In this document: one piece after another, positions 2,188 to 49,698 of the stretch | How the letters are laid out: the number at the start of each line of letters is the position of its first letter | Numbering within the stretch: position 1 is the stretch's first letter | DNA from: Naegleria gruberi | Lineage: Eukaryota | Strand: one strand, 5' to 3' | Assembly (NCBI GenBank): GCA_000004985.1 | Contig: GG738845.1 | Length of the DNA: 64,000 nucleotides | The notes under the pieces: model-generated | Told to the model about the DNA's origin: nothing | The model's database searches: none | The model's input: only the letters and a program-made list of their open reading frames with translations | Made by a program: the position numbers and the translations under genes

Positions 2188-4620
2188 CTATATAAGGCTG
2201 GATTCCTCATTGGAAAGTTCATCAGAAAGAGTTTTTTCCATTGGACTAGTATTAACCTTTCTTTTGAAGGAAACAGAACAACCCCCATATAAATCCTTTA
2301 ACATCTTTTTGTTTAAAAGCATATATTGCTCAATTATCATCATTAGTAGAATGGTGAAATCCATAATCATCGATCTATTAATTCCAATAAAAACCCCAAA
2401 CAAATCCCAGCCAAATAAATAGGTTAACATAAATAAAGCACCAACCAGTATTAACAATAAGAAACAAATATCAGCAAATATCATAAATCTAGTAAACTGA
2501 GCAGCAAGGTTATTTAAGTAATGGAATATAATAAAAATTACCTTCAATCTGGCAAAAGAAACATTCTCTTTCATTGACTTTAGTTTGTAATACATTCTAA
2601 TCCCACTAAATAAAAATCCAATTGGGAAAATCCACAAATACATCATTCCAAATGCAATAAATACCATGAATATTATTGATAGTTTGGTAATAAAAAATGA
2701 CATGCAAATTACTGAAATAAGAAGAGCCAGTAAGGAAAGGTAAAATCCAGAAAGAATCAATTTGTTTCCAAGTGTAAGAGATTCTTGAGGACGTTCTTCT
2801 TTCTTAATTAGAGAAGATTTTTCAACTTGTTCAGACTTTTCCTCATCTTCAGGACAATCATTATTTTCTTGTTGGTCAGTTCTACTAGACCCTAATAAAG
2901 CTTTTCCAGTTGCTGCAATGCTTGCACTGATTCCAGAAATAAAATTATCATTTGTTGAGGTCATATGTTGCCAACTGACAAGCATACTTGCAAAGCTGCA
3001 ACATAAAAGTACCAAAGAAACCATTCTCATCATTCCATTACCCAATAGTAACATAAATCCGTTCTTTGATGTATTATCCTCTTGGTTATAAACATTTGAA
3101 AAAACATATAAATTAAAAAGATAGGCAAACACTTCCTGAGCGCTCATCCACAATATAGAAATAAATAAAATGGTATTACTTTGCATCCTTAAATCAAATA
3201 GAGATGTAACATAGGAATATTTACGATTATAATACTTAGTCCTGGCTTCTTTACATATTGCACAACATAAAGGTAATTGTAATAAGAAGATTGATGTAAA
3301 TAGCAGTAAAATAGTACATAAAAATATAAATATAGGTCCAAACTCGAATACAAACGGTATTATGAAATGTGAATAAACGTCACACTTATACCCAAATGTA
3401 AAATTTTTCATTCCTGGCACCAAGCTCAAACTATTACCCTCACAAAAGCAGTTATAAGGAAAATAAGATTGCTGGATAAACTTCATAAAATCATAAAATG
3501 ATAAAACATTTCTGAAGGCAGAAATATCCATTAAATCTGACGCCAAATAAAAAGTTCCTATTTTCATATTATCATTAACAGAATCTTCTATGCACTGTTG
3601 TTGAGCTTTTTGTACCACAATAGAGTTAAAAAGTGGGCAAGCATCTCTGTAGCCATCCCCATCACTGATGGTATTGTTAACTAAGAAAAATCTAAAATCC
3701 TTGCTATTATTGTTATTACAATAATAACAGTAATTATAAAACCATGAAAATTCATCCAATTGACTCCATGTTGTCAAATTCAATTTTCTATTTTCTACTT
3801 CATGATATTTTCCTGTTGATGTACAAAAAAATTGAATACATAGGTTTGATTCTTCATCAAATGTGTCATGTTCAACACTAAAAGGTAGATCAGAGACAGT
3901 AAGATAGTTTCTTGGAGGAGCATCAGAAGAGCACACATCTATCATTGGAGAATCAGGAGGATATAAGCTTACTGAATAATCCCCAACGCTGGCAAGTAAG
4001 CTATAGGAATAATTTGGAATGTAAAGTTTTGAATAAGAAGTACCATTTAGATCTGTCCTAACCCAAGGATTTTTAACAGTGTAGAGAGCAGGAAATTTTT
4101 TTGTAATAATATCAATCTCTGGAGAATATTGAACTGTGGGTGAAGCTGCGAAAAGGATGAGAATGATCATGGAGAAAGTGAGAATAAATACCAAATGTTC
4201 AATAAGAGGTCTAGATGTAAAGTAGGACAATAAAGAAGGATGAGAGGTTAATAGTAAAGACTTTTCGTTTGGTAAAATTGATGTCCTCCGCAACTTTTTT
4301 CTGTTAAGAAGTATTTGTGGTGGTGGTGGTGGGGAGGGATGTTGTTCTCTAAAGTGTTCTATAAAAACCTCTTTAAAAGATTTGGCTAATTGTTCAATAA
4401 TTATTTTTCTATTGTGATGACCCAGGACAATATTTGATGGTGTATCCAAATTGTTGGAAATACCATCTCCGAATGGTAGTATTGTAGATGATCGTGGAGG
4501 AGTTATGTGTTGTGAAGTACAATGAATTGGTATTGCCATTTTTTTAATATATATAACGGTTATTCTTAAAATCATAAGTAATATTAAAATAATAATACGC
4601 AATGTAGGACTCTGAATCAA
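2188..4620 (-). CDS. Multi-pass membrane protein with large N-terminal extracytoplasmic Cys-containing domain (3' end truncated by gap), function unknown
   Basis: 810-aa ORF. Signal-anchor MIQSPTLRIIILILLMILRITVIYI, then a ~380-aa hydrophilic Cys-containing domain, then about 8 predicted TM helices (e.g. FIIPFVFEFGPIFIFLCTILLLFTSIFLL, IIFMVFIAFGMMYLWIFPIGFLF). The ORF runs into the N gap, so the C-terminus and stop are unreliable. No family recognised. Confidence 0.45.
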   Translation of the reverse strand: MIQSPTLRIIILILLMILRITVIYIKKMAIPIHCTSQHITPPRSSTILPFGDGISNNLDTPSNIVLGHHNRKIIIEQLAKSFKEVFIEHFREQHPSPPPPPQILLNRKKLRRTSILPNEKSLLLTSHPSLLSYFTSRPLIEHLVFILTFSMIILILFAASPTVQYSPEIDIITKKFPALYTVKNPWVRTDLNGTSYSKLYIPNYSYSLLASVGDYSVSLYPPDSPMIDVCSSDAPPRNYLTVSDLPFSVEHDTFDEESNLCIQFFCTSTGKYHEVENRKLNLTTWSQLDEFSWFYNYCYYCNNNNSKDFRFFLVNNTISDGDGYRDACPLFNSIVVQKAQQQCIEDSVNDNMKIGTFYLASDLMDISAFRNVLSFYDFMKFIQQSYFPYNCFCEGNSLSLVPGMKNFTFGYKCDVYSHFIIPFVFEFGPIFIFLCTILLLFTSIFLLQLPLCCAICKEARTKYYNRKYSYVTSLFDLRMQSNTILFISILWMSAQEVFAYLFNLYVFSNVYNQEDNTSKNGFMLLLGNGMMRMVSLVLLCCSFASMLVSWQHMTSTNDNFISGISASIAATGKALLGSSRTDQQENNDCPEDEEKSEQVEKSSLIKKEERPQESLTLGNKLILSGFYLSLLALLISVICMSFFITKLSIIFMVFIAFGMMYLWIFPIGFLFSGIRMYYKLKSMKENVSFARLKVIFIIFHYLNNLAAQFTRFMIFADICFLLLILVGALFMLTYLFGWDLFGVFIGINRSMIMDFTILLMMIIEQYMLLNKKMLKDLYGGCSVSFKRKVNTSPMEKTLSDELSNEESSLI

Positions 4621-4705: not shown

Positions 4706-7700
4706 ATGATCTCAACACAAAAAGCTATTCATCACATTGTGTTGCTGAGAAAGAAGCCTTTGCTTTTGCATTGGAACATTCTCATTTTCATGATTTTATA
4801 TCCTTTAGCTTCTTTGGGAATTAATGTCTACTTACTTCCTGCCATGTTGCACTCTCATTCCGATCATTCTCACCATCATCATCATCACGAATCACATTCA
4901 GATAATTTATTTTTTTATCATCTTGTTTGTTTGGGTCCTTTGGCTTTGATACATTTAGTTACATTCCTCTCAGCCTATTGGAATGTTAATATCAAGGCTT
5001 TTTTTCAATACTCACCTGTTGGTTCTGATTCCATCAGTGAAGGAATTGTTGTTAAAGTTGTTCCGAACAAACACAAAGGGTTCACAGAATTATGCCCTCT
5101 AAAATTAATAAGAGAGGAAAATGGGCAACAGCGATATTATTTCGAATATCAAAAGCGAGGCTTTTATTGGGATGAAAATTTAAAACAATTCGTTAGAAAC
5201 CGTTTTCCATATCAAAATTTGGAGCAAAAATCCCAAACACTCAAGGAATGGATCACAAAGACTGAGAAACAAGGTTTAACTGATAAGGAAACACACGTTA
5301 AGAGAAGAATTTATGGTCATAATCAATTTGAAATTCCAATACCAAAGTTCCTTGAGTTATTTATCGAACATGCATTAGCTCCATTCTTTGTATTTCAAGT
5401 ATTCTGTGTATTGTTGTGGTGTTTAGATGAGTATTGGTACTATTCCCTTTTTACACTTGTTATGTTGTTCATGTTTGAGAGTACTGTTGTAAATTCGAGA
5501 TTGAGAAGTCTTAACCAAATAAGACAAATGGCCACAAAGCCTCAATTCTTAAATGTCTATAGAGATGGCAAGTGGATAGAAATTTCAAGTATTGATCTCT
5601 TACCTAACGATATAATTTCTGTTACTCATCATGCTGAAGAAGGCCAAGTAACACCATGCGATATTTTATTAATTAGTGGCAAATGTGTAACGAATGAAGC
5701 CCTCCTTACTGGTGAATCTACTCCACAAATGAAAGAATGTATTCCTGTGGAAGAGTTGAAGGATAGAAAGAAGCTTGATATCAAAAATATTGATAAGAGT
5801 CATGTTATATTTGGAGGTACAGTTGTTTTACAACACACAACAGGAACAGCATGTGGAAAACAAGCTCCAGACAAAGGTGCTGTTGGTATTGTGTTGAGAA
5901 CAGGCTTTGAGACGTCTCAAGGAAAGCTCATTAGAACCATTTTATATGCTTCTGAACGTGTGAGCGCTAATAACGTAGAAGCACTATTGTTCATCTTGTT
6001 CCTTTTAATTTTTGCAATTATTGCTAGTGCATATGTGCTATATGAGGGATTAAAGAATCCTGAAAAGAGCAGATACAAATTGGCACTCAATTGCATTTTA
6101 ATTATTACTTCTGTAGTTCCTCCTGAATTACCAATGGAACTTTCTCTTGCAGTCAATAACTCTTTATTGTCACTCTCCATGTTAGGAATTTTCTGTACTG
6201 AACCTTTCAGAATCCCATACGCTGGTAAAGTTAACGTTTGTTGCTTTGACAAGACTGGTACCCTAGTCAGTGATAAGATGACACTCAAGGGAATTGCAAT
6301 GTCAGAAAATGATTCTGATGAATTATTGGAGAAACCAAGTGAAAAGAGTAGAATGGTATTGGCTGGTTGTCAATCCCTCATCGATCTGAATGGAAAAATA
6401 TTGGGTGATCCTATGGAAGTTTCTGGTCTTTCTGGTGTTGAATATGAAATCAATAAGGATATTATTCAAAGTACTTCATCAAAGACCATCAAATCCATCA
6501 AAATACTGAAGAGATTTCCTTTCAACTCAGTCCTCAAAAGAATGTCTACTATTGTTCATGTTGTAGAGAAGAATGACTCTAAGGTTACTCGTGTTCTCGT
6601 AAAGGGAGCTCCAGAGTTAGTAAAGCCATTCCTTACTGGAAGTGAAGTTCCAGGCGCTCTTCAATCCTATGACACTAGATTCCAACATTTAACCCAAATC
6701 GGTATGAGAGTAATCACACTTGCCTATAAGGATTTGAACACCACCGATCTTAATGTAGTAGAAAAATTAACTAGAGAAGAAGTAGAAAAAGATTTGATTT
6801 TTGCTGGCTTTGCTTCATTCCAAAGTGATATTAAGCCAAATACCAAAGAAACTATTCAAAATCTTAAAAATAGCTCACACAAGGTTATTATGATCACTGG
6901 CGATAATCCTTTGACCGCCTCACATGTTGCAAAAGAATTAGAAATGACAAACAAGCCAATTCTGTCCCTCAAACAAGACAATGAAAAATATTATTGGTTC
7001 GGAAATACTAGCAGTGGATGTGACTCGGACACGCACAAAGATTTTGATATTAGTACTATTCCAACACTTTCAAAATCATTTGATTTTTGTGTAAGTGGTG
7101 AACAAATGGCTAACCTTTCAGCACTTTCGAATGGAAAAACTATTTTGGATGTCCTTTCTTCCCATGTTGCAATTTTCGCTCGTGTTAGCCCCGAACAAAA
7201 AGAATCCATCTTGACATCACTCAAATCACAAAATTATCAAACTCTCATGTGTGGTGATGGTACTAATGATGTTGGTGCCTTGAAACAAGCTCATGTTGGT
7301 GTGGCACTTCTCGAAAATAAGCCCCAACCAAAGAAGGAAAACGAAACCCAACAACCAAATACACCCCTCCATAAGAAGAGCGATATTATCAAGGAACTTT
7401 CTAAAGTTAATCCATCAGTTAGTCCTCAAGCTCAACAAAAGAAATCCTTCACAGAGTTGTTGAAAGAAATGAAAGAAAAACAAGAACAGTTGGCAGCTCA
7501 AGAAGAGGCTAATCTTGTTAAGTTGGGAGATGCTTCAATTGCTAGCCCTTTCACTTCTCGTAAATCCACAATAGAATCATGTGCTCATATTATCATGCAA
7601 GGACGTTGTACATTAGTTACCACAATGCAAATGTACAAAATATTAGCTTTAAATTGTCTCATTTCTGCCTATTCTTTGAGCGCTCTCTACTTGGATGGTG

Positions 7701-8307: not shown

Positions 8308-10212
8308 CTACAACAATACCTCTCCAATAAATTTACATGATTTAAGAATATCTTGTTTTCCTGATTTTGAAACACGACAATCTGTCAAATCTAAAAATCT
8401 CAAACTCCACGATCTTTTTAAATAATCAATAATCTCATCTCCTATCAGTGTGTGTGAAATAATGAGAAGTTGTAATCTTCTGAAACCCCTTTTTGAATCC
8501 ACAATTCTATTGAATATTGCCTCACAAGCAGTGTTTGCAGCGATGTTTGTATGGCTCATATCCAATGAATGCATTCTTGGAGGTAAGGAGATTGGACTTT
8601 TAAAACAACCATTACTTATCTCATTATTGCGAGCAAGATTTAAAACCTTCAATGTTGATATCTGAAATATGGCATGACAACCAATATCGGTAATGTTATT
8701 CATTGACAAATCCAATTCTTCAATACCCCTATTTTCCTTTTGTGACTGAAAGTGCTCTGATATTTTTTGAGCACTACTAGAGGTCAACCCAGTATCAATC
8801 AGTTTTAGTATCCTTAGTGGTATTTTGCAATTTTCCAAAATAGTTTCAATATGTTGATTTGATATTGTAAAACTATTAATTTCCAAATATCTTAGATTGC
8901 ACGATTCTCTCATACAAACATTATGGTTAATCTTTAATTTGGTAATAAATTTTGAAGGTATTAAATCCTTTTCATTCTGCAAGCTTTTTCGAACATCCAA
9001 ACATTTAATATTTGGAAGCTTTCTTAAAATTGTATTCATTGATTCTGTGAATAGAGAAAGAGAATAATTTCCAGCAATTTTTAATACTTTGCAATTATTG
9101 ATATTATCCAACAATGTTAAAAATCCAGTAAAATAATCAAGTGAACAAAATGATAGATCAAGGTACTCCAATGACTTGTTAGTACAAGTCTCATATTTTT
9201 CATGATCCAATTTGATACCAATATTGTATTTCAATGAAAGTTTCTGTAAATTTTTCATAGTGGTTAATATTTCAACCAAACTGTCGTCTGTTAAATCACA
9301 CCCATCCAATGATAACTCTTTTAATGATACTTTTGATGAGCATAAGCTATGTACAATTGATTTAAATAATATTCGAGTTTCTTTAGAATATTCATCCTCC
9401 AGCTGATTATTTTCAATCGAACCAAAAAGATAATTTAGTTTCAGTACTTGTAATTTGGGTGAATTGTAAAATAATTTATCGAACCATCCAACACAATTCT
9501 GAATATAATCCAGAGAATTTCTGTAAAACTTCCGTTGACATGGAAATGTCATCCCAGAGAGATCTAAATATTTTAAATTATCCAACTTGTTTTCAATTAA
9601 AGCGTTGAAATTATGCAATAAAGAACTTTCATCGGATTTAATATTTAAATATCTAATAATTGAAATAAAACTTTGTTCTCTATTAATTATATTCATTCTA
9701 CTTTTTAAAAATTCATTATTCCATAATTTTAAAACTCTATACGAATAGGGAGAAAAATCCAATTTCTCAATTGTTAAATTATTTTTTCCATGTTTTAAAT
9801 ATTGACTCATAAAATTGATGGGACTAGACAACTTGGAATTCAGAGTTAATCCCCTACAGTGTGATGGTATAAAGTTGGAAAGTACAGATATTGTAAGATT
9901 AAAATCTTGATTCTTTCCATAGGGCCATTCATATAAATTACAATATTTAATATTTGGCCAAACCAGAAATATTCTACTTCTTCCTCCTCCTTCCTTGTAT
10001 CCAAATAGTAATTTAATAAAATAGGATTTCAAATAATATAATGGTGTTGATTCATCATAGAGAGAATATAAATTTTCCAGTAATGATTGTTGTTGATTTT
10101 GAATTTTACAATCCTCCAAATATTCAATAACATAAATTGAAATATTCAATTCTAAATATTCCATAATACAATAAACAATTTCGATTGGTAAATCAACATG
10201 GGCACGAAGCAT
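8308..10212 (-). CDS. F-box / leucine-rich-repeat protein
   Basis: 634-aa ORF. N-terminal F-box-like motif HVDLPIEIVYCIMEYLE, followed by many LxxLxLxxC/N LRR units (e.g. LRFLDLTDCRVS, LEYLDLSFCSLD, LRYLEINSFTIS). Confidence 0.55.
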   Translation of the reverse strand: MLRAHVDLPIEIVYCIMEYLELNISIYVIEYLEDCKIQNQQQSLLENLYSLYDESTPLYYLKSYFIKLLFGYKEGGGRSRIFLVWPNIKYCNLYEWPYGKNQDFNLTISVLSNFIPSHCRGLTLNSKLSSPINFMSQYLKHGKNNLTIEKLDFSPYSYRVLKLWNNEFLKSRMNIINREQSFISIIRYLNIKSDESSLLHNFNALIENKLDNLKYLDLSGMTFPCQRKFYRNSLDYIQNCVGWFDKLFYNSPKLQVLKLNYLFGSIENNQLEDEYSKETRILFKSIVHSLCSSKVSLKELSLDGCDLTDDSLVEILTTMKNLQKLSLKYNIGIKLDHEKYETCTNKSLEYLDLSFCSLDYFTGFLTLLDNINNCKVLKIAGNYSLSLFTESMNTILRKLPNIKCLDVRKSLQNEKDLIPSKFITKLKINHNVCMRESCNLRYLEINSFTISNQHIETILENCKIPLRILKLIDTGLTSSSAQKISEHFQSQKENRGIEELDLSMNNITDIGCHAIFQISTLKVLNLARNNEISNGCFKSPISLPPRMHSLDMSHTNIAANTACEAIFNRIVDSKRGFRRLQLLIISHTLIGDEIIDYLKRSWSLRFLDLTDCRVSKSGKQDILKSCKFIGEVLL

Positions 10213-10234
10213 TTTTTTTCTAATAACTTTTTAA
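10213..10234. promoter_or_regulatory. 22-bp divergent intergenic spacer between the ATGs of the F-box/LRR gene (-) and the Zn2Cys6 gene (+)
   Basis: Start codons at 10212 (minus) and 10235 (plus) are separated by only 22 bp (ttttttttctaataactttttaa). Implies a shared minimal bidirectional promoter and very short 5' UTRs. Confidence 0.4.
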
Positions 10235-12130
10235 ATGTTCCACCAAAGAATGTTTTTTTCTCTAACAATATATTGTAAAGATATGTTTATTGGTATTTTT
10301 ATTGCCTTAGAGAGCAAATCCAACAAGATTTACCAACACAATTTAATCTTGATTTCAAGAGAGAATGAGATGATTCATGCACCCTTGCTGCTAATAATAA
10401 AAAATTATTTAGAAAAAATGAAATTAACACAAATCAACTATCAAGAGGACGAAATAACAAAGGATTATTTGATTGGAGATTCTTGTCTAATCAATAATTT
10501 CGAATTAAAAGATACTAGGAATGATGAAATGAAGAGTTTAGAATTTATTTCCGATAACAATTCATCAATTTGTTTGTATGGTTTCCTTCAAAAACATCCA
10601 AGAAATACAACAAATTCTTTCTTCGTTAAGATTTTACATTTAAAACAGTGGAATTTTAGTGAAAGTGGAGATATTATTGTACAATCATCAAGATATTGGT
10701 ACAAATTATTGAATCCATCCCCTGAATATGCTCCAACATTTGATTTGTTCGAGCAAAGACATAATCTATGGAGAGAATTAAAACCTATTTTGATGAGTTG
10801 GACGAGCGATTTATCTAGATGTGAGGAAGAAGATGAATTGAGCATGATTAAAAACAACATTACTATTGAAAAAGTTTTGCAAAAATTACCGAACACAAAT
10901 GAAGATTATCTATTAGACCATGCCCAATTTTTATATGATCAAATACTTCAAGATACCTCATCCTTTTCCATTCATGGATCTGATGTGAATCAAATGATGA
11001 ACACTCCATTACTATTCTCATTAAAAGAGAACCGATTCAAAAAGAAAGAAAATCAAATGATCAAAATTACAAAAGAAACTGCCTTGATGGATGGTATAGA
11101 GCTATCAGATTCTGACTCATATGACGAAAAGGATTTTGGTACCACATCTGAAGATGAAAGTGAGGATACTAATAGTGAGCCCACACAAAGTAAATCAAAA
11201 AGAAGAAAATATAAAAAGAGAGAAACTCCTAATAAGAAGAAAAAAACCAATCATGAAGAAAAGGGTAAAAGACAAAAGAAGGCTATGAAACAAGTATACA
11301 CAACAGCACACAAAATGGAAGAAGGAATACCTTCACGAAATTATTTTTTAGAAAAAGAATTTTCACCTCAACTCCTTTCTGAGTTGAGTGTGAAATATGA
11401 ACCTGGAATATGTCATTCTGGTAAGTTGATTGATTTTACATTCCTTAATAACTTGAATTTCTAAGTATGCTTCCAATGCAAAAAGAGAAGAATAGCTTGC
11501 TATAAAGAAAGGCCTGCATGTTCCAATTGTCTGAAAGAAGGTCTTCAATGTACATACCCAGAACTTATGAGGCTTTCACGTATGTTTCTTATTTTGTAAT
11601 TAAATATTTAATATATTTACCTCCCAATAATAGCATGTGTTCCATGTGGAGAACGCGGTGGTAAAGTATGCAATAGAGAAAAACCAACCTGTGATATCTG
11701 TATAGAACGTAAGTATGATATTTTAATTTGGCATTTTAACATTTTGATATCAGGAAAAACCAATTGTTACTATTTTAGCTCTGATACTTTTCTCATTCTT
11801 GCAGAAAAGAATATTAATTCAGCAAAGGAACAAAACGAAGAAACCATTGAAAAGAAAACTAATATCACCACATGGAACGATGAAGCTTATTCTGAAATTT
11901 TAAAGGAAATGAATGAAAAGATTAACAAATATTCCAATGTTAAAGAAACAGAAATCTCAAAAATCCTTGAAAAAACAACCACTCAACAAAAGGTAACAAC
12001 AATGGAAGATCTTGAAGATTTGGAAGAACAAGTGGTAAGATGGAAAGCAAAAGCTGAAAAGGAAAAGAAAAAAAGGATTGGAATCAAAGAAAAATTAGAA
12101 CAATATATTGAAAAACTTGATGAACAATAG
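10235..12130 (+). CDS. Protein with two tandem Zn(II)2Cys6 binuclear-cluster motifs near the C-terminus plus C-terminal coiled coil (4 exons)
   Basis: Exons: 10235..11420, 11466..11579, 11634..11708, 11754..12130. Introns are 45, 54, 45 nt with 5' splice sites GTAAGT, GTATGT, GTAAGT. Exon 2 encodes CFQCKKRRIACYKERPACSNCLKEGLQC (C-x2-C-x6-C-x6-C-x2-C-x6-C). Exons 3+4 encode CVPCGERGGKVCNREKPTCDICIERKTNC (C-x2-C-x7-C-x6-C-x2-C-x6-C). This joins ORF 10235..11464 to ORF 11744..12130 in frame, giving about 583 aa. Acidic/basic low-complexity region upstream. Confidence 0.6.
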
Positions 12131-17545: not shown

Positions 17546-17663
17546 GTTAACAATAGCTTGATTTGATGCGATGGTAGTGTGGATGTTTTTTTAATTTTTT
17601 GAATTTAAAAATAGGATTCTGTATTACAATAAAATTCTAATAATAAAAATTGCTTGACAAAAT

Positions 17664-28000: not shown

Positions 28001-30362
28001 TATGACCAATTAACTTACATTTGTATAGGGAGGAAAGTTTGGATTCTTCCATTGCAAATTCTTTGTTATCAAAAATAAGAATTAATAACACAAGCAACTC
28101 CTTAGAAATATTTTCTAATGTTCTGTTTAAGACTATTTCTGCTACCTCCTTAGATAAAATTTTGCTGTTGAGTGGTTGAATTCTCAACAGAGTACATAAT
28201 TGATTAGCAACTGATTTCAAAATAAGAGAGTCCTCTGTGTCTCTCATTAGTGATACTAGTGATTCAATATCAATATCAAAACTATCATTTGGGATGGGTG
28301 AATCAAAAAATCTATCCACATCCTCTAAATAGCAACTTAAAAAGGGATCACCTTCTTTGAGTTCGATATAATTTTCTGTTTTCAAATCTAAAATAAATAG
28401 AGATTTGAGGTTAACACTTGCTGTCTCTCTAATCCACTTATATTTGTGGAATAAAAATCTCGTGTGATAAGCCAATAGTTCTTCCTTTGTCATTAGTCTT
28501 TCAAATAATTGAAGAGTAGAAGTAACTTCATCTAAACTATCTTTAGCTGAGAGAATATTTTCAGAGTATTTGATAGTGCATTGTAATAAGGGAAGGTTTG
28601 GTAAAAATCCTCTTATTGAACAAGGACTGTTTTGAACGATATCCAAAGTAGTCTTTACCGATTCTTCCAATTCTATGGAGTGAAGAGATATTAGGTAGAA
28701 TATATCTTCAGAAGCAAGCTTTTCAAGAAACACATGTTGATCTTCTGCAATGAATTTAATTGCATAGCTTCTAATATCCTTATTATTACAAGAAAGCAAG
28801 TCCAACAACAACTCTCTACAAGAATCTTCTAAAAACTCGGATGTTATAAATAATTCTTGCATGTATCTTTCTAAAATTCGCGCATCGAATGTATGTGGTA
28901 GTATTAGAAATATGTTACGAAGCCTGCTTAGATGTGCTTCTGCATCAGGTAGTACATCACAATCTTCGTCCATCAATTGTTCCAACAGCTTGAAAGATTT
29001 TTCAATCTCTGGGAGTGTATTGAAATTGTTGCACGCCTTATTCTCAAAACGTTGAACTTGATTCAAAACTTGTTTGTGTATTTGAGGAAAACACAAATAT
29101 AAATTATTGTCAAATAAAAAATTCTCCAAAATAGGGCTAAGTTTTTCAATACAGTCCATTAACTGAAATTAGTTAATAAATAAGGATAAATATATTAGGA
29201 TACTTACGATGGTAGAGCTTGATCTGTTCAAAATTGTTGTTAGTAGATCGACAATTTTATAAGTATCCAAAATATCTAGTTTCTCGTGCAATAAATTTCC
29301 AATATCCTCATAAATATTTATCAAACTTTCCATTAATGTGAGCTTGTCTAATGAACAAATTTGTTCTAAGAAACAATTCAAAATCAATTTAAGGATATCA
29401 ACAAGTCTTCCCAGCAATGAAGGTTTAAGTTTGAAAATATATATAAATTTAGAATAACAATATTTGAAAATATATAGCATTGAATCAGTGTCAACAAATG
29501 TATAGCTCTCTAGAGAATTATTAAGAATTTTCAAAGACGCTTTGTCAAATAAAACACTCAAACATTCTAAAACTTGTAAATCTATTGCCATTCCAAAATC
29601 ACTCTGAATCGATGACACCAAGGACTACATAATTTAAGTCAATTAATTGATCTCAAACTTACCCTAATAATTTCTGGGCTTTGAACAAAGTATTCGATTG
29701 GAAACTCCAATAAGGGTGATTTTTTGAGATCTGAAAGAGCCTCTTGTATCAAGTCCACTCTCCTTTGTTGAAGTTTTACGTTGATTTCAAATAAATATTG
29801 TTTGTCCAATTCTGCCAAATCAGCTTTTTTAATAGCCTTCCTAGTATTTTTTGGTTCTTTCTGTGGCATGTTTTCTCTTGTAGAATATATCTGAAATCGA
29901 GAAGTATGTAAATCAGTAGATGATTGATTTAAAATAGATTGCTCTTGGTAAATAGTGACAATATTTTCCTTCTCATTTCTTACTTGTTTTAATACTTCCA
30001 CTATTGAATCAACATCGGAATGAATATCTTCAGGAGCATACAATCTCAAAGTTTGAAAAAATCCTATAGCTCCAATCTCTATCAAAATCAAAGCACTTGT
30101 TTTACTCTGTTCTGAGTTAGTGTTTTTGGATATTGTTACAAACCTTAGCAAATTCTCGCACAAGTTGTATTACTTGCCGATAATAAAAACAAGGATTATT
30201 GTTGAACCATTTCAACAAGGCTACTAATAGCTGCTCATCATCCTCGGAAGACTGCACATTAACAACTCCATATTTGAATTTATTTAATAAATTTGCCATT
30301 GCTCTCTTCTTAATTTCAATGTTGGGATTATCCAACTTTTCCAGCAATCCCGAACAAGTCAT
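25090..30362 (-). CDS. Very large (~1710 aa) alpha-helical ARM/HEAT-like repeat protein, 5 exons, function unknown
   Basis: Minus-strand exons 30362..30144, 30106..29663, 29624..29208, 29162..28019, 27977..25090. Introns are 37 nt (GTTTGT...cactaactcagaacAG), 38, 45 and 41 nt (GTAAGT sites). This joins five track ORFs (30117..30362, 29639..30163, 29169..29621, 27987..29159, 25090..27936) into one frame. Leucine-rich helical composition throughout. Confidence 0.55.
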
Positions 30363-30399: not shown

Positions 30400-32336
30400 T
30401 TAGTTAGTGAATAGGCAAAGAATTCCATCATCACCTCCACTTACAAGGTACTTTCCATCAGGATCAAATTTTACTACTTGCACTCCTTCCTTGCTTCCCT
30501 TCAAATCTCCAAGAGTAAAGTTTGATTTAGAGCTTTCTTCTTGGTCTTTTACTCCATCTGGTGCAAACAATCTTACAGAACTATCTGATGAGGCAACCGC
30601 CAGCACTTTTCCGCTCTGATCAAACGTACACTTGTTTGCAGATACAGGTACATCACTTATGTTGAATTGATTTCTTATTTTTTGGGTTCTCATATCCCAC
30701 AACAAGACCAGACCATCACAATCAGTTGAGGCGATAGTATCTCCTTGGAGATTAATTGTAACACTATTACAACTATTCTTATGCCCATAATAAGTCTGAA
30801 CACAAATACTCTTACTGTCAACCCTCATATCCCAAAGAGAAAGTGTCTTATCTGCTGAAGCTGAGAGCAATAGATTTGTAAAAGGAACACAAACCACACT
30901 ATTTACACTGTCCTTATGTCCTCTAAAAGTTGTGACGCACTTCTCAGATCTAATATCAAACAACTTTGCTGTTTGATCCATTGAGCAACTCACTAAAAAA
31001 TCTCCTGAATGGTGGAACTGACATTCCCAAACAGGAAGTGTATGGTCCTCAAAAGTTGAAGAGCAACTGGCAGTAGTAAAATCCCACAACTTGACTGTAC
31101 AATCACCTCCAGAAGTTGCCAAATGAGTCCCAAAAGGATGAAAATCTATTCCACTCACCCAATCAGTATGACCCTCACCGCTCATTATCACTTTAGAGGT
31201 TGGTAATGACCAAGCTTTCCAGGTTCCATCATCTGAAGCTGAGGCCACTATTGGTTTTTTGGAGTGAACAGCTAAACCAGTTATTGCCATAGAATGACTT
31301 TCATAATTTTGAGTAAGAGTGAAGGTTTCAGCCATTACTCTTGAAAGCTTCTTTTCCTTATAAGGATTCTTTTTTTCAAGAGGAAGAGTTGAATCCTTTT
31401 TCTTTACAGATTTCTTTTGAGTGTTGGTAATTGATGATTTCATTTTCTTTTTTTCTATTTCTTGAGTATTTACACTAGAGATTGGCTCGGTTTGCTTAAA
31501 ATTGTCGAGCTCATTCAATCTATTAAGTAGCCTATCCCTTTCCAAACAAACGAGTGTCTTTTCTTTAAAAACCTTGTCATATTTAAGAGTAAGTTCAGCA
31601 ATAAAAGGTTCGTACTTGGCGCAGTGATTTCTCATTCTTTCTAATTCTTTCCTTAATTGATCCTTTGTTTGGACAGTTTGCATATGGTTCATTTTGTGGT
31701 GATCTTTCACCCTTTTGAGCTTTTCAAACTTTTGTACAATATTTCTATTTCTTTCAAACAATCATATAATAAATGATAAACTTACTCTGAGAGCTGTTTT
31801 TGTTGTTCCATTTGCTTTTTACAATAACTAAGCTCTTCTTCCACTCTCTGAAGTTGGATGTAAACATCAGGGACTGAATCAGCAAAATCCTCAATTTCTC
31901 CTTTTTGTTTTTTTTCATATAATTCATCATTGAACATTCGTAAACTGTCCTCCAAACCCCTTTTTGAAAGAAAATTTCTAATAAAATCTTCTACAACTTC
32001 TGGTTCTTTTTTCAATTCTGGAAGAGGTGCTTGCTTTCTTTTCAATTCTGGAACCTTTTCGTCTTCTTGTTTCTTTTTTTTCTTTTCCAACAATCTAAGA
32101 GTACCTTCAAGAGTGTTATCATCATCCTCATCCTCATCCACCATTAATGTATTCTCGCTATCAAGTGATCCTCTTGGAGATATATCCAGCACTCTTGATT
32201 TCTGTTTTTTGGATTGAAATATTTCCTCCTCTTCCTCCTTGAGTTCTCTGAAATACTCTTCATCCTCACTATCCATTAAAGCCGAGTAAAGCTCACTCCT
32301 AGTTAATTTAGCCTCCGTTGTAGCATTTGCCTTCAT
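30400..32336 (-). CDS. LisH motif + coiled-coil + 7x WD40 protein (2 exons)
   Basis: Exons 32336..31786 and 31750..30400, joined by a 35-nt intron (GTAAGTttatcatttattatatgattgtttgaaAG). Exon 1 is acidic with a LisH-like VEDFIRNFLSKRGLEDSLRMFNDE. Exon 2 has a coiled coil then WD40 repeats (ITGLAVHSKKPIVASASDDGTWKAWSL, GHTDWVSGIDFHPFGTHLATSGGDCTVKLWD, etc.). Confidence 0.6.
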
Positions 32337-32411
32337 TTTTTTACGATTGTTTTTTATAAAGTTGTACCTGTTTTTGGCGCCAAAAATATAAATGAAAAAT
32401 TTTAATGAAAA

Positions 32412-34069
32412 TTACCAACTATCCACATCGGATCCATCAGAGTCATCTTCTGATTGTGGACGTTTTGGTGGAGGGGGCATTTTAGGCAATTCGGTAGCAG
32501 CTGAAGAATCTGGTGCTGTCGAGTTTGGGGTAAGATTTGGAGTTGGGACTGGTGGAATAGGTTCTTCTGGTTTCTTTTCCTTCTTTTTCTTCTTTGGTTT
32601 TTTTTCATCCTTACTTCCCTCAATGGCATTTCTTCTTAACCCAATTTTTCTGAATAAATCTGTCATCATGTCACCACCTGAAGACTTTTGAGGAGCAGAA
32701 GCTTCTTTGGAGGATTCCTTATCACGAATTTTGTTGGCTTTTTTAAGTTTGTTCTTTGAGAAATTTCTAATAGAAGCCAAAAGATCGCTTCTATCACCTC
32801 CTCCACTTTCTGTATTCTCATTTTCATCTGTATCATTATCACCAGTACCTTCTGCACTTGGTGTTACGATCGGAATAGAAGGTGGTTGAGGTACGCCACT
32901 TGGAGGTGGTGGTACACTACTAGATGACATTACAGGAGGTGGTGGTACATTACCCATAGTGACAGGAGGTGGTGGTACAACGCCTGTAGAGGTAACAGGA
33001 GGTGGTGGTACATTTGTTGGTACAGATGGTATTGATGAAGATGTTGGATCAATTGAAGATGGAACTGCATTTGTGTTGAGAGATGTTGTACTATTGTTAT
33101 TTCCTAAATCTAATGAAGGTAGAGAAGAAGGAGCAATGGATGGCATATTATCTAAAGATAAATCCCACTGGGCTGTATCCACAATATTTGGTAATCCTAA
33201 ATTGGAAGGAAATTCAAACATTGGCAATTCTCTTCTTGTAGGTGCAAATGCCTTAATGTTTTGTTCCTGACTTGCCGAACTTCCCCAATACATATCATAG
33301 ATAGAATCTTTGGACAGAGAAGGAGGAGCTGGATCAATATATAAATTGTTAGCGGAGGCAAAGTCATGATTCTTATCGTTTTTGTTTGATGTTCCTTCCA
33401 TGGCCATCATCATCATTGTGGTATGATAATTTGCCTGAAGAGGATCGGCACCATGATACTTGTGATAAACATTCATATTGGTATTAAAACAAAGTAATTC
33501 ACTAACAGATTGTACATTCTTGAATGGTAGTTTACCTACTCCTTCATCTAATTTCTTTGGAATTTTGTTGTGTGATTGTTTGTTTTGCCTTGTAGGAGAC
33601 TTTTCGAAATGTTCAATAGGATTATATAATTTATGCTAAATTATTTTGTGATGATCAATTTTAAATTTCCAGATTAAAAACTTACATTGAAAAGAATATT
33701 GTTCGGACCAGGATTAAACTTGTGAAACTCCATTTGTTGAATCCCAATTCTGTCACGAGCTGCAAAGGTTGGTGAATATTCTACATTACTGATATCCTTG
33801 TCTGGGTAGTGTGGGCTACTGAGAACTCTGGTTGCTTCATTCTTCCTCTCTTTTTGTACCCATTCTACTGCTTTTTTGCAAACAGCAGCACGTTGTTGCA
33901 CTTTTTGAAGAGTATTTCTTTGCTCGGTGACTTTGTCAGTTATTTTCTGGAATACAGATACACTAATTCTTTCTAGGTGTTCCAAGGAATCCAACATTTG
34001 TTGGATATTTTCAATCCTGTTTTGTTGGTAAACAACAGGAAATTCATAAATATGAGGTATTGCTGACAT
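32412..34069 (-). CDS. SCAR: SCAR/WAVE actin nucleation-promoting factor (2 exons)
   Basis: Exons 34069..33686 and 33518..32412; 167-nt intron. Exon 1 is the SCAR homology domain (IENIQQMLDSLEHLERISVSVFQKITDKVTEQRNTLQKVQQRAAV, compare WAVE [32 protein letters not shown]). Exon 2 has poly-Pro repeats (VPPPPVTSTGVVPPPPVTMGNVPPPPV), a WH2 motif DRSDLLASIRNFSKNKLKK (WAVE ARSDLLSAIRQGFQLRRV), a C-region TDLFRKIGLRRNAIE, and an acidic tail ending DDSDGSDVDSW. Confidence 0.75.
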
Positions 34070-36740: not shown

Positions 36741-36778
36741 AAAAACAGTTTTAATTTTGGCGCCAAAATTTAATTACA

Positions 36779-38812: not shown

Positions 38813-38946
38813 TTTTTTTTACTGAGTAAATAAATGATCATCACAGTATGTTCAATATTACTTTTGTTTTAATACTTGCGAAATAGTAGTAATAAGTAAT
38901 TGCTATTAATTTACCTTAGGTTTGCTTTTTTAAATACGTATCATAA

Positions 38947-42472: not shown

Positions 42473-44209
42473 TTACCAACAGAATTTACACTTGTACGAA
42501 ATAAACTCAGCTCCATGCACTTCACAGACACCTTCTTGTCTAACCTTTTTAGCACAACAGGAACCACAAACAAGCTCCTCTGGATTGAAATTATCATCCT
42601 CATTCTGTTCTCCACATTGAATCTTTCCTCCGTAGTATGGACTTTTGCATTCATGGCACATGTAGAATGAAAAAGAGTTCATTGCATACTCTAAAGGTTT
42701 GTTATAATATTTTCCAGATGGAGACGTAATTTCCTCAATCTTTAAAAGACCCTCTTGCTCTAGTTTGACCAGTGATTTTTTTTCTATTATCGATTTGAGT
42801 GCTCTTACTTGGGTTGTTTCATCTTTTAGAGCTGGATGATGGATAGAAGTGTTGCATAGAGGACATTTCTCAAATGAAAAGCTCACTCTTGCCCCATGCC
42901 ATTTCTTTTCCAGCTTTTTCTTTATGCATTCAAAATGGAAAATATGTCCACAATTAAGCTGTATGCAAGGAGCATGATTCAAGGAGCTAATCCAACAAAT
43001 ATTGCAATAGTCATCACCACTTTGGCAAGTATCTCTTGAAGAGCAATTCAAACAGGGAAGGTGCTCAAATTCATCCTTAATTCCACAACAATGATGACCA
43101 CATGTATGCTTGTGATTGCAAGAATTCAGAGCTTTTTGCTTGCATTCTTCATTCTCACAAATATCACCATTGCAATTAATATCAATAGATGAATCACAAT
43201 ATCTACACCTTTTCGAAGAAAGGTATTCTAAAAATGTGTCACAAGTAAATCCTTCGTGATATGGAGATTTTAAGCATTTTGAGCAAAATTCTAAGGAGCA
43301 AACTCTACATCTAAATCTGAACTCTTCTTTGTGAATGTCATCTTCTTTGATTGGCCTTTTTTGAGATTCAAGTTCAGAAATGATTTCCTCTCTCTTCATG
43401 TGGATTCTTTCAACAATATTTTTACATGAAGAGTTTGGACAAGTAATAAAAGTGTTTCCGGTGTCAGCATTCTTCAATGCTCTCCTCAATTCCATATCTA
43501 ATAACTTTGAGTATTCTTTTTCAGAAAGAACCGAGGAAATTAATTGAGACGGTACTGTCTGACAGCATCCATTTGCTGGGCAAAGGATCGACAATTCATC
43601 AAAGTCCAAAGAGTCATCAGTTTCGTCCCCAAAGGAAAGAAAATACTTTCTCAAACATTCTTCACAAAATACATGAACACAACTCTCCATAAAGAATGAC
43701 ATGTCTATGGTCAAGTATTTACCACAACAATCACATTTCATTTTCTCCTCGTTTTCCAATTGTTTTTTATGCTCCTTAAGCTCTACCAAGTATATTTGCC
43801 TAGCCATCTGTTCATCCTTTCTTTGCTGATCCGGTGATGTAGTGCTAAATAAAAAAGCATCATAATAGGAAGTAAAATCTTTAGGCGAGTAAAGTTTTGG
43901 TTTTTTCTTACTTTGAGGAGTTAAGCAAGAAACCCCAGTAGACCTCAACATGTTCCTTAAATTAAGGCATTCATCAATATGTTGTTCAATATTTCTTGAA
44001 GAAAATTCTTTTTCACACACAGGGCAAGTAACCAGGGAATTTCTGGGTGTATTTAATTCCTCTCTGTTAGGAGTTGAGGGAGGAGAAAAAGAATAAAAAC
44101 ACTCTCCATCTGTGAAGCAGGTTGTGCTGGAGGTGTCATCCACATTATCATTAAGCATTTTTTTTGAAACCTTGTCCCTTAAAGGACATATTTGGCGGGC
44201 AATAATCAT
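42473..44209 (-). CDS. RBR-type (RING1-IBR-RING2) E3 ubiquitin ligase with extra C-terminal RING-H2/zinc-finger modules
   Basis: ORF 42473..44257; first ATG by frame arithmetic at 44209 (MIIARQ). UBZ-like CPVCEKEFSSRNIEQHIDEC. RING1 CDCCGKYLT..CVHVFCEECL, IBR ITCPNSSCKN, RING2 FRCRVCSLEFCSKC..HEGFTC. Then CGHIFHFECIKKKL...CPLC and further C4 modules. Confidence 0.6.
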   Translation of the reverse strand: MIIARQICPLRDKVSKKMLNDNVDDTSSTTCFTDGECFYSFSPPSTPNREELNTPRNSLVTCPVCEKEFSSRNIEQHIDECLNLRNMLRSTGVSCLTPQSKKKPKLYSPKDFTSYYDAFLFSTTSPDQQRKDEQMARQIYLVELKEHKKQLENEEKMKCDCCGKYLTIDMSFFMESCVHVFCEECLRKYFLSFGDETDDSLDFDELSILCPANGCCQTVPSQLISSVLSEKEYSKLLDMELRRALKNADTGNTFITCPNSSCKNIVERIHMKREEIISELESQKRPIKEDDIHKEEFRFRCRVCSLEFCSKCLKSPYHEGFTCDTFLEYLSSKRCRYCDSSIDINCNGDICENEECKQKALNSCNHKHTCGHHCCGIKDEFEHLPCLNCSSRDTCQSGDDYCNICWISSLNHAPCIQLNCGHIFHFECIKKKLEKKWHGARVSFSFEKCPLCNTSIHHPALKDETTQVRALKSIIEKKSLVKLEQEGLLKIEEITSPSGKYYNKPLEYAMNSFSFYMCHECKSPYYGGKIQCGEQNEDDNFNPEELVCGSCCAKKVRQEGVCEVHGAEFISYKCKFCW

Positions 44210-44245
44210 CAAAAATAATTTTATTTTCCAATCAATCAAAAAAAA
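44210..44245. promoter_or_regulatory. 36-bp divergent spacer between the RBR E3 gene (-) and the mitochondrial carrier gene (+)
   Basis: First in-frame ATGs at 44209 (minus) and 44246 (plus). A-rich spacer (...caatcaatcaaaaaaaa). Confidence 0.35.
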
Positions 44246-45190
44246 ATGAACAAACAAGCAGACAAAGAATTACAGCCAAATAACCTACCTGATGATTCGG
44301 AGAGTAAAAGAGAGCCAAAAACCCGAGACACCATGATTGCGGGTGCACTGGCTAGATGTGGTGCTGCCACAATAATGTATCCAATAGATGTTTGTAAAAC
44401 TAGAATGCAATTTCAGAGACGTTCCGCTCACTTTCATACAGTATACAGAAACAGTTTCCATTGTTTGTCTAGTATGATGAAAACAGAAAGATTTGGAATA
44501 TATAGAGGATTATCACTGCGATTGTTTTATATTGGTCCAGGTGCTGCAATTACATTTACAGCTTATGAAGGATATAAAAAACATGCAGAAAAAGCCAAAC
44601 AAAAAGGGGAAAGTATTCTTACATCTGGAGCCTTATATTCTCTAATTATTGGTGGATTGGGAAGAGCAGTCGAGTCAGGAATTAAAACTCCTTTCAACAT
44701 TATAAAACAACAATTGCAAGTTGAGGGACAATTGACAACCCAGTTCAACCGAGGATTGGTAAAATCAGTGAAACATATTATGGAAACAAAAGGAGTTGGT
44801 GGATTATTTGTTGGATATTCTGTTACACTTTGTAGAGATTTACCCTTCTCATTTCTATATTTTGCAAGTTATGAATTTATCAAAAACAAATCAGAAAATT
44901 ATTCCATTCCACTTCTCAAAGACTATGCTGCTGTTAGAGGTGCTATTGCTGGAAGTTTTGCATCTGTTTGTACTTTACCTTTTGATGTGATCAAAACAAG
45001 GATACAAACACAACACAAAATTTCATCCGATGCACACTATTCAGGTTATAAGGATGCTGTCTCTAAAATATTTAAACAAGAGGGTTTTGCTGGATTTTTT
45101 AGAGGTATAACTCCACGATTAATTTATACAATCCCGTCCACTAGTATTACATTCCATCTCTATGAAGTATTAAAAAATTATTTAAAATAA
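44246..45190 (+). CDS. Mitochondrial carrier family (SLC25) protein
   Basis: 314-aa ORF with three carrier signature motifs PIDVCKTRMQ, PFNIIKQQLQ, PFDVIKTRIQ and six TM helices. Substrate not assignable. Confidence 0.8.
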   Translation: MNKQADKELQPNNLPDDSESKREPKTRDTMIAGALARCGAATIMYPIDVCKTRMQFQRRSAHFHTVYRNSFHCLSSMMKTERFGIYRGLSLRLFYIGPGAAITFTAYEGYKKHAEKAKQKGESILTSGALYSLIIGGLGRAVESGIKTPFNIIKQQLQVEGQLTTQFNRGLVKSVKHIMETKGVGGLFVGYSVTLCRDLPFSFLYFASYEFIKNKSENYSIPLLKDYAAVRGAIAGSFASVCTLPFDVIKTRIQTQHKISSDAHYSGYKDAVSKIFKQEGFAGFFRGITPRLIYTIPSTSITFHLYEVLKNYLK

Positions 45191-45622: not shown

Positions 45623-45710
45623 TTTTTTTGTTCTATTAAATTTAAATCATCATAGTTGGCGCCCTTTATGTACATTATAAAAATTGTTGGCGCTCAAAAA
45701 ATCAAAAAAA

Positions 45711-47731
45711 ATGACTGACAATATGAGGTTCTCCTCGCTTACCTCACAATTTGTGCAGAAGCATTTGGAGGCTGAAACGTTATTTAAAGAAAGACTGAAA
45801 GAGTGCGATGATCGGATTCGAAAATTTGAAGCCACAATACAAGAATTAAAAGGGGAACTTGAAAAAAAGGAGAAAAATTATGAACAACTAAGAAACGATT
45901 GCGAGTATAATTATTTATTGGTTAAGGAGAGAGACCACGAATTGGCTACTGTTGAGAATGAGGCTTTAAAATTGAACGAACATAATTCAAGACTGTAAGT
46001 AAATAGATACACCTTTGTTTATGTTGTCACAGTAAACAAGAGCTAGAATCGTTACAAAAGGAAAAACTTGTGTTAGAAACAGAAAAAAAGAAGGAGAGTG
46101 CAAGAAATAATGAAATAGAGGTCTATTACCAGGAAAAGATGCAAGAGCTAAGAAATGATCAAGACCTTATAAAAAAAGAGTTAGAAGAGAAAAACCAAAT
46201 GATAATTAAAGAATTCGAAGTTACATTGAGAGATCAGCAAAGGCAATATGAATCAAAGTATGAATTATTGGAAAAGCAAAGAATTTCCCTAGAAAATGAT
46301 TTCAAAAACTCCTTGAATGAAAAAGATGATCAAATTAGAAAATTATTGCAACAGATAAGGGAAAAAGAACTCATAGCAAACAAATATATTTCTGAAAATG
46401 ATTCTATCAAGAGGAATTATTCATCAAAGATAAAATTACTGGAGGAGGAGAAACAATCCTTGGATCAAACCATCAATGAATTGATATTAAATCATAAGAA
46501 TCAGTTACAAGAGTTACAAAGAGAGTCATCCAAACAGCAGCAGCAATTGGTGGCATCTTATGAGCCTACTCTGCAAAGATTGAAACAAGATATTGAAGAA
46601 TCTCAAAATGTAATTAAAACGCAGAAAGAGAATATTAAACTTTATCAAAGACAATCAGACGACAATGAAAAACAGAGATTATTTGACATTAACTCACTAA
46701 GAAATGAGTATGAGGAAAAAATTAGAAAAAGAGAAAAAGACTACGAACAGTTGAAAGAAAAAGAATGGGAACTAACTCAAAAACTAGAGAGCAAGGAAAA
46801 TATTATCACTACTTTAAAAAAGAACTGCGAAGAAAATGCTAAAGATATGGAAAAACTTCAAGAGGATATTAAACAGGCCTTCGAAAGAGAAAATACTACA
46901 AAGAGAGAAGTGTTAAGATTAAATCTACAAATAGAACACGAAAAGGAAGCTAAAGTGAAAGAGATTTCAGATAAGCAAGATCAAATTCTACAAATATTCA
47001 GGAAGGAATTAGACGAAGCCAACGTGATAGTTGAAGACAAGGAAAGACAAATTGATGAATTAAGAAAAGAAATAATGATGCTAAATACTGAACTCTCCAT
47101 AGCCAACACTCTAAAATCAACCCCATACAACAAGCTTAAACCACAACAAAAATCGAATCAAAAATACCAACAAATGTTATCACAGGTGGAAGATGAGCTC
47201 GGTTTGGGTTCAATAGATTCTGTATCTTCCCCTTCTTCAATTGATGGCTTATCTGTAATTAATAAGGACGATTATAAGAATTCAATAGAAAATCATAATT
47301 ATTTGGAAAATAGCATGACATCTCCAATTGACAAACTCAAACTTAGCAGTGTGCACATTGATCAAATCACTAAAATGAACTCTCTAATGACAGAATTAAG
47401 ACTTGATCTGGAAAGTCAAAAAGAAAAGGTATTCAGAGCTGAAGAGAAACTGATCGATATGGCTACAGAAAATAAGATTCTGAGATCCAAGCTAAAGGAG
47501 GCTGTGAAAGATTTAAAACGAGTGTACAAAGAGAAAGAACAACTCACAGATATTAGTAACATGTTAAAATCTGAGCTGACAAAAACAAAAGAAGCCCTCT
47601 TTTATGCAAGAGAAGCAGCTGTATTAGTTAGTGTTGAAAAACCTGCCTCTCCCAAACCATCAAATGATAATCTAGGTGTAAATGGTAAATCAAAAACTAT
47701 CTCACAAAGAAAAAAGAAGCTAGGATATTAA
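45711..47731 (+). CDS. Long coiled-coil protein (~660 aa), 2 exons
   Basis: Exons 45711..45994 and 46033..47731; 38-nt intron (GTAAGTaaatagatacacctttgtttatgttgtcacAG). Joins ORF 45684..45998 (ATG at 45711) to ORF 46070..47731. Heptad-rich E/K/Q composition throughout. Function unknown. Confidence 0.5.
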
Positions 47732-47767
47732 ATGAAATACACTAAATATAAAGAACGAATTTAGTCT

Positions 47768-49675: not shown

Positions 49676-49698
49676 ATTTTTTTTCAACTTCAAAAATA
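49676..49698. promoter_or_regulatory. 23-bp divergent spacer between zuotin (-) and DHHC palmitoyltransferase (+) start codons
   Basis: ATG at 49675 (minus) and ATG at 49699 (plus), by frame arithmetic from the ORF track. Spacer is atttttttttcaacttcaaaaat. Confidence 0.4.

Follow-up and report, generated by a model that had tools for sequence, protein, structure and literature searches.

Bidirectional promoters depleted of nucleosomes occur in budding yeast and Dictyostelium; they carry poly(dA:dT) tracts and switch from T-rich to A-rich sequence at the start site. The divergent spacers of yeast, typically a few hundred base pairs long, hold two separate core promoters. Transcription in Giardia lamblia initiates inside an AT-rich element adjoining the ATG, leaving 5′ UTRs of ∼3-25 nt, and a head-to-head spacer of 153 bp has been documented (PMC1885649). 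E. cuniculi, a microsporidian, has 5′ UTRs shorter than 7 nt (PMC2803860). For Naegleria gruberi itself, direct RNA sequencing gave a median 3′ UTR of 39 nt, and in ∼11-13% of genes the AAUAAA poly(A) signal and the stop codon overlap (PMC11529991).

The 64-kb stretch of N. gruberi DNA analyzed here (the window) contains two pairs of divergent genes with only 23 and 24 bp between their start codons. As in yeast and Dictyostelium promoters, a T-run is followed by an A-run on each strand, leaders would be A-rich, and an A/T-rich region is shared; unlike in yeast, the entire spacer is smaller than one core promoter. Both spacers (87 and 100% A+T) also resemble G. lamblia (PMC1885649) in placing an A/T-rich element directly beside the start codon, and the two organisms have in common very short intergenic regions and UTRs; the AT-rich elements of Giardia work both ways, and one short head-to-head spacer is on record. 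The systems differ in that start sites were mapped in Giardia and are inferred here, in spacer length (153 bp vs. 23-24 bp), and in way of life, Naegleria being free-living and Giardia a parasite whose TBP is divergent and whose set of general transcription factors is reduced. The second AT-rich element found ∼30 bp upstream in Giardia has a possible counterpart at only one of the four genes in our two pairs, that for an acidic protein (AAAATATTT).

The locus further shares with E. cuniculi and Antonospora locustae (PMC2803860) the displacement of signals into neighboring genes, an unavoidable overlap of transcription and, putatively, very short 5′ UTRs. As in microsporidia, its spacers are too short for the UTRs and signals of both neighbors (23-24 bp between divergent starts, −4 to 11 bp between stops), and just as a pre-ATG motif corrects start codons and removes most apparent overlaps in E. 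cuniculi, such a motif changed the picture for two of four pairs here. The microsporidian motif is CCC-like, however, rather than an A-run, and the genomes are those of obligate parasites, 2-3 Mb in size with ∼1 gene per kb throughout, whereas this window is a locally dense region. We found no description of the arrangement for Naegleria in the literature searched. It is half as large as an earlier note on this DNA had claimed, its mechanism is inferred, and overall we regard it as a modest and mostly ordinary finding.

Gene density and start-codon context

The N. gruberi genome is ∼41 Mb in size and only roughly 58% coding overall. In the window (32.7% GC), ORFs of ≥60 aa in a greedy ATG-ORF map covered 88.7% of the sequence, and the gene map comprised ∼41 genes with ∼21 strand switches, i.e., a change of strand about every two genes. 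An assembly gap of 61 N (2119-2179) lies between two convergent genes, and tRNA and Rfam scans of the 64 kb returned no match. Exact matches of window ORFs to N. gruberi NEG-M reference proteins included XP_002683040.1, XP_002683047.1, XP_002683052.1, and XP_002683387.1, among others, and identify the stretch as nuclear DNA of N. gruberi. A public ENA "metagenome" assembly (ERZ929261) holds contigs 100% identical to N. gruberi NEG-M and is the only known source of several window proteins. Five of the eight genes named in the earlier note are absent from the v1.0 reference models or truncated there: the 634-aa LRR and 69-aa ubiquitin-like (UBL) genes seem to be missing from the set, and the models for Zuotin (455 aa, partial), the RBR ligase (409 aa, from residue 170), and the mitochondrial carrier (285 aa) are shortened. 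Because of these gaps and truncations, the tight pairs are invisible in the reference annotation. Among the protein labels proposed in that note, LRR, RBR/IBR, mitochondrial carrier, Zuotin, DHHC (in later exons), and UBL were supported by Pfam, and "Zn2Cys6" was not.

The start codons of the earlier note, all eight of which we located in the sequence, were the first ATGs of each open frame. Inspection of the 60 nt preceding each long ORF, however, showed an A-run before most starts. We built a position weight matrix from 22 training starts outside the eight named genes and scored every ATG in the window; the training starts were self-chosen, and the reference models are not ground truth. Among the 22, the frequency of A was 0.77-1.0 at positions −5 to −1. 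Over the 26 starts outside the tight pairs, T reached 0.44-0.48 at −25 to −16 (a modest shoulder at n = 26) and A reached 0.50-0.88 at −15 to −1. In two genes the A-run rule passed over the first ATG and picked the start of the reference annotation, 10418 in one and 4539 in the other. The latter belongs to the gene at 2188-4575(−), whose first ATG (4575) has a poor context and whose A-run ATG is the start of XP_002683387.1; this gene is an independent check of the rule. The same A-run precedes 8 of 12 annotated N. fowleri genes at one fetched locus. It could be purely a translation-start context, uninformative about the transcription start. It is a useful rule for picking start codons in Naegleria annotation, and a genome-wide count of tight pairs would be meaningful only after starts have been corrected with it.

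Table 1. Genes, spacers, and gene junctions discussed in the text; coordinates are positions in the window, and start-context percentiles refer to the matrix described above.
Feature	Position	Strand	Remarks
LRR protein, 634 aa	8308-10212	-	Pfam LRR_4 6.8e-8; start-context percentile 0.979
Spacer, LRR/348-aa protein, refined	10213-10417		most likely 205 bp; the 22 bp claimed earlier (10213-10234) are its left end only
348-aa protein, XP_002683040.1 / NAEGRDRAFT_61147	10418-11464	+	exact match
RBR/RCR-type E3 ligase, first exon	42473-44158	-	Pfam IBR and RING; likely start 44158, not 44209
Spacer, RBR/carrier, refined	44159-44245		likely 87 bp; RBR start moved to 44158
Mitochondrial carrier	44246-45190	+	Pfam Mito_carr 7.6e-64; start-context percentile 0.997
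Head-to-head spacer, 88 bp	45623-45710	.	T-run/A-run ends; two TTGGCGC motifs
Zuotin/DNAJC2 (DnaJ + ZHD + 2 Myb/SANT), 635 aa	47768-49675	-	Pfam; start-context percentile 0.973
Head-to-head spacer, 23 bp, attttttttcaacttcaaaaata	49676-49698	.	T-run belongs to the start context of the - gene (an A-run on its strand), A-rich run to that of the + gene
DHHC palmitoyltransferase	49699-51033	+	exons 49699-50374, 50422-50464, 50505-51033; Pfam DHHC 3e-26, last exon
Ubiquitin-like protein (UBL), 69 aa	53504-53713	-	Pfam ubiquitin 1.7e-4, residues 3-59; start-context percentile 0.995
Head-to-head spacer, 24 bp, ttttttttaatattaaaataaaaa	53714-53737	.	100% A+T; AG on neither strand
Acidic protein, 185 aa, XP_002683052.1 / NAEGRDRAFT_44973	53738-54295	+	exact match; start-context percentile 0.990
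Convergent stops	8305/8308		2 bp
Convergent stops	12130/12142		11 bp
Convergent stops	23213/23210		−4 bp
Convergent stops	45190/45191		0 bp
Convergent stops	53507/53504		−4 bp
Convergent stops	63580/63585		4 bp

Divergent gene pairs after start-codon correction

Of the four tight head-to-head pairs in the earlier note, said to have 22-36 bp between their ATGs, Zuotin/DHHC (49675/49699) and UBL/acidic protein (53713/53738) stood, and the other two dissolved when a start codon moved downstream (10235 to 10418; 44209 to 44158), an outcome that the earlier note had itself named as a refutation. The Zuotin start is fixed, since 49675 is the sole in-frame ATG before a conserved block, KVEQYIGRGFF, that begins at about residue 14; the protein is 77% identical to that of N. 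fowleri, 76% to that of N. lovaniensis, and 53% to that of Willaertia. For the DHHC gene, ATG 49699 has a start-context percentile of 0.925 vs. 0.009 for the alternative in-frame ATG 49666, which would make the two coding sequences overlap, and the next in-frame Met lies >110 codons downstream, beyond the first transmembrane segment. An independent ENA contig (k127_543861 of ERZ929261) is identical over 47524-50230, a range that spans the spacer. The GT..AG introns of the DHHC gene restore the frame and the CRD motif. They are very short (50375-50421, 47 nt, gtatgt...tttag; 50465-50504, 40 nt, gtgagt...aatag) and are separated by an exon of 43 nt; similar GTAAGT...AG introns of ∼45-60 nt were seen upstream of ORFs at 19900, 29159, and 61818.

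Zuotin lies head-to-head with a neighbor in all four species, with RFC at 481 bp in N. fowleri, RFC at 212 bp in N. lovaniensis, an unknown gene at 152 bp in Willaertia, and DHHC at 23 bp in N. gruberi (the first three gaps are 9519-10001, 5788-6001, and 5848-6001 in the coordinates of each fetched locus). Given that the neighbors differ, spacers cannot be compared between species. No other window gene maps to the Zuotin loci of N. fowleri, N. lovaniensis, or Willaertia, and other Naegleria loci (∼50 kb sampled) held no spacer as short as 23-24 bp. Judged from these loci, gene order around Zuotin is not conserved and the tight junctions look lineage-specific; a rearrangement in the N. gruberi lineage seems to have placed Zuotin and DHHC side by side. 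Scanning metagenomes with the Zuotin sequence brought up distant J-domain matches only.

In the second pair, residue 1 of UBL aligns with residue 1 of PDB ubiquitin, and the start of the acidic protein, whose coding score is in the 98th percentile, is that of its reference model; on these grounds both ATGs were retained.

The pair with the smallest claimed spacer, 22 bp at 10212/10235, did not survive. Its LRR protein carries an F-box-like LPIEIV motif at residue 8, just after the start at 10212, and its gene is apparently missing from the reference annotation, in which the flanking accessions are consecutive and leave no slot. On the opposite strand, the start-context percentile rises from 0.69 at ATG 10235 to 0.99 at 10418, the start of XP_002683040.1, and the 61-codon extension beginning at 10235 scores in the 8th percentile of true coding windows. 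We rejected 10235-10417 as a real N-terminal extension because of its poor start context and coding score and the disagreement with the reference annotation. That it forms an open frame is weak evidence, since the coding DNA of the window contains 155 stop-free stretches of ≥50 codons in wrong frames. The spacer is most likely 205 bp and not 22 bp. We also rejected the Zn2Cys6 identity of the 348-aa protein, for which Pfam gave only weak DNMT1-RFD and UBR4_N matches.

The RBR/carrier pair, claimed to be separated by 36 bp (44209/44246), likewise widened. The RBR start-context percentile is 0.277 at ATG 44209 vs. 0.974 at 44158, and an RNA-guided N. fowleri ortholog model (XP_044562231.1) opens with "ML" aligned exactly to the second Met of the N. 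gruberi protein, at 44158; the longer N. fowleri RBR models have an unrelated N-terminal extension. The carrier probably starts at 44246 rather than at the reference position of 44333, as the N-terminal segment from 44246 scores as coding and has 41% GC. These starts point to a likely spacer of 87 bp, which would be larger if the reference start of the carrier is correct. The upstream neighbor of the N. fowleri RBR ortholog is an importin gene and not a carrier, and GGCGCCAAA lies upstream of that ortholog. An E2F-like sequence, tttggcggg (44194-44202), falls within the 17 disputed RBR codons.

Spacer anatomy and compaction at both gene ends

After refinement, the divergent ATG-ATG distances in the window are 23, 24, 87, 88, 118, 134, 166, and 205 bp; those of 88 (45623-45710), 118 (17546-17663), and 134 bp (38813-38946) were measured as the earlier note gave them. 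The two tight pairs fit the definition of head-to-head genes (opposite strands, adjacent 5′ ends, <1 kb). Back-to-back ATGs of good context within 60 bp of each other occur eight times in the window, three times with ORFs of ≥60 aa on both sides, and no such pair with both ORFs of ≥60 aa appeared in 40 block-shuffled windows. Two of the three are the tight pairs themselves. The third, at 32336/32392, was set aside, its 99-aa ORF on the + strand lying inside the gene at 32412-33476(−) and being probably spurious.

All four claimed spacers are rich in A/T, as described earlier (86-100% A+T). Both genuine ones read CAT-T(8)...A-rich-ATG, and all four of their start codons have a good context. They look like two generic A-run start modules placed in opposite orientation with nothing else between them. 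In the tight pairs, a TATA-like element is not consistently present ∼30 bp before the putative start sites, and three of the four genes have none; this position falls within the coding sequence of the neighbor. The sole case is the AT palindrome of the acidic protein gene, which is made by the first codons of UBL.

Seven convergent junctions in the window have stop-codon distances of 2, 11, −4, 0, 36, −4, and 4 bp, including a 4-bp overlap of the UBL stop with that of its neighbor. With stops −4 to 11 bp apart at six of them and a median 3′ UTR of 39 nt, convergent transcripts must overlap, and on this reasoning from distances the mRNA 3′ ends at these junctions must be antisense to the coding sequence of the neighbor. 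Clean tandem gaps measure 58-65 bp, which, minus a 3′ UTR of median length, leaves ∼20-25 bp for promoter and leader. This squeeze runs through the window, and the tight head-to-head pairs stand at one extreme of it rather than forming a special class of locus; the earlier note missed this wider picture, in which compaction takes in the whole window, including abutting and overlapping gene 3′ ends. The ultrashort 3′ UTRs reported for N. gruberi (PMC11529991) show the same tendency in the same organism, in work that covers 3′ ends only, and we found no description of a 5′ counterpart in the literature searched. AATAAA overlaps or abuts several of the convergent stops in the window.

Probable short leaders and competing explanations

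The earlier note was right that the genuine pairs leave no room for ordinary signals: 23-24 bp are too few for two conventional core promoters and two ordinary 5′ UTRs, so either the leaders are very short and begin within the A/T spacer or the neighbor's coding sequence is where transcription starts. Since a core promoter spans ∼35 nt on either side of the start site (PMC2803860), promoter recognition of the four genes would extend over codons of the neighbor under any model. Most likely the genome has simply been compacted in the ordinary way, leaving mRNAs with very short leaders, and no new mechanism of making 5′ ends is involved. On balance we think it probable that initiation takes place within the spacer or at its edge and that leaders are at most ∼25 nt long.

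The process may be pictured as follows. Non-coding DNA is squeezed at both gene ends in this gene-dense stretch; each gene retains an A-run at roughly −1 to −10, and the bases from about −16 to −25 are usually richer in T. In the tight pairs, intergenic DNA is reduced to two such modules, the A-run of one gene doubling as the upstream T-run of the other. Most likely, RNA polymerase II would initiate both ways within the T-to-A switch or at its edge, giving leaders of ≤∼25 nt, and the rest of the pre-initiation-complex footprint, together with upstream regulatory sites, would lie over the first codons of the neighbor. The A/T tract would probably also keep the site free of nucleosomes. Short leaders are favored because the T-to-A switch sits ∼15 nt before the ATG, because E2F-like palindromes are located 38-53 nt upstream, and because compact eukaryotes provide precedents; the palindromes, which precede ATGs 32336 and 36713, fit leaders shorter than ∼40 nt. 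In a stronger version, which we think unlikely, the 23-24 bp T-run/A-run module of this free-living eukaryote would by itself suffice as a symmetric initiator for both directions, with each A-run serving as a near-leaderless 5′ UTR and as the T-tract element of the other gene, and with other promoter recognition placed over coding sequence. In the literature searched, we came across no mapping of transcription start sites or of 5′ UTRs for Naegleria.

Several consequences would follow. If start sites lie inside the 23-24 bp spacers, Naegleria would offer a free-living, culturable, and transfectable system for minimal two-way initiation by RNA polymerase II, and would also test how ribosomes handle leaders of ∼10-20 nt. 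Under the stronger version, and if the Zuotin/DHHC junction arose by rearrangement, Naegleria genes may need only ∼10-12 bp of upstream DNA of their own.

Transcription might instead start tens to hundreds of nucleotides inside the coding sequence of the neighbor, so that 5′ UTRs are antisense to it, as known from microsporidia and nucleomorphs, and the spacer is translation context only. The spacer is indeed far below the span of a core promoter (∼35 nt on each side of the start), the 3′ ends in the window already must overlap (median 3′ UTR of 39 nt; PMC11529991), and long 5′ ends antisense to neighboring coding sequences have been reported in Antonospora and E. cuniculi (PMC2803860). The Zuotin/DHHC junction, absent from N. 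fowleri, N. lovaniensis, and Willaertia, could perhaps have obtained promoter information from newly adjacent DNA. The most compact of the mapped comparators, however, have very short leaders (PMC1885649, PMC2803860), and a start site near the ATG is suggested both by the T-to-A switch (about −15) and by the E2F-like sites (−38 to −53). A long DHHC leader would moreover include the in-frame ATG 49666, and a long Zuotin leader an ATG ∼45 nt upstream. A count of upstream ATGs was dropped as a gauge of leader length, since it has no power when only four genes are available and an ATG is expected every ∼55 nt. We rate such deep overlap as less likely, yet to be taken seriously.

It is quite improbable that both surviving pairs are artefacts of gene models, through a wrong start, a missed upstream exon, or a spurious UBL ORF. 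Start correction did away with two of the four claimed pairs, just as it eliminated 120 of the 129 overlaps, head-to-head or head-to-tail, that had been apparent in E. cuniculi (PMC2803860), and UBL is open to question: it is 69 aa long, its sequence is absent from the reference protein set and comes from ENA only, its Pfam score of 21.7 bits is below the gathering score of 25.4, and a single-sequence AlphaFold model reached a pLDDT of only 45 (low confidence). Against this, the alignment of UBL to ubiquitin begins at residue 1 and its start context is in the top 0.5%, the acidic protein starts where its reference model does, conservation pins the start of Zuotin, and choosing the next DHHC Met would cost more than 110 codons and the first transmembrane segment. 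Upstream exons would need to lie on the opposite strand of the neighbor's coding sequence.

Trans-splicing of a spliced leader onto longer primary transcripts, as in Euglenozoa, was raised in the earlier note and would dispense with a promoter in the spacer; Heterolobosea are related to Euglenozoa within Discoba (10.64898/2026.07.29.740908). The spacers nevertheless offer no sense-strand AG acceptor for DHHC, UBL, or the acidic protein gene and a single one for Zuotin (49688-49689), and the ATG is abutted by an A-run rather than by a pyrimidine tract and AG. The frequent strand switches and the lack of long same-strand arrays in the window also speak against it, in keeping with the roughly two genes per directon and absence of long directional clusters described for Heterolobosea (10.64898/2026.07.29.740908). 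The 64-kb window contains no spliced-leader RNA or other Rfam family, although such a gene could sit elsewhere in the genome, and the literature searched yielded no report of trans-splicing in Naegleria or Heterolobosea. We consider this option hardly credible and prefer compaction with short leaders.

E2F-like TTSGCGC motifs occur eight times in the window vs. 0.76 expected, and none of 100 shuffles reached eight. The sites lie at 32374-32383, 36757-36766, 45656-45662, 45687-45693, 28877-28883, and 31616-31622, in addition to the related sequence among the disputed RBR codons. Four of the eight matches are both strands of the palindromes TTGGCGCCAA upstream of ATGs 32336 and 36713, and two fall in the 88-bp head-to-head spacer. 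The genes downstream of the E2F-like sites had no Pfam matches. GCGC-type sites are also present upstream of RFC and of the RBR ortholog in N. fowleri.
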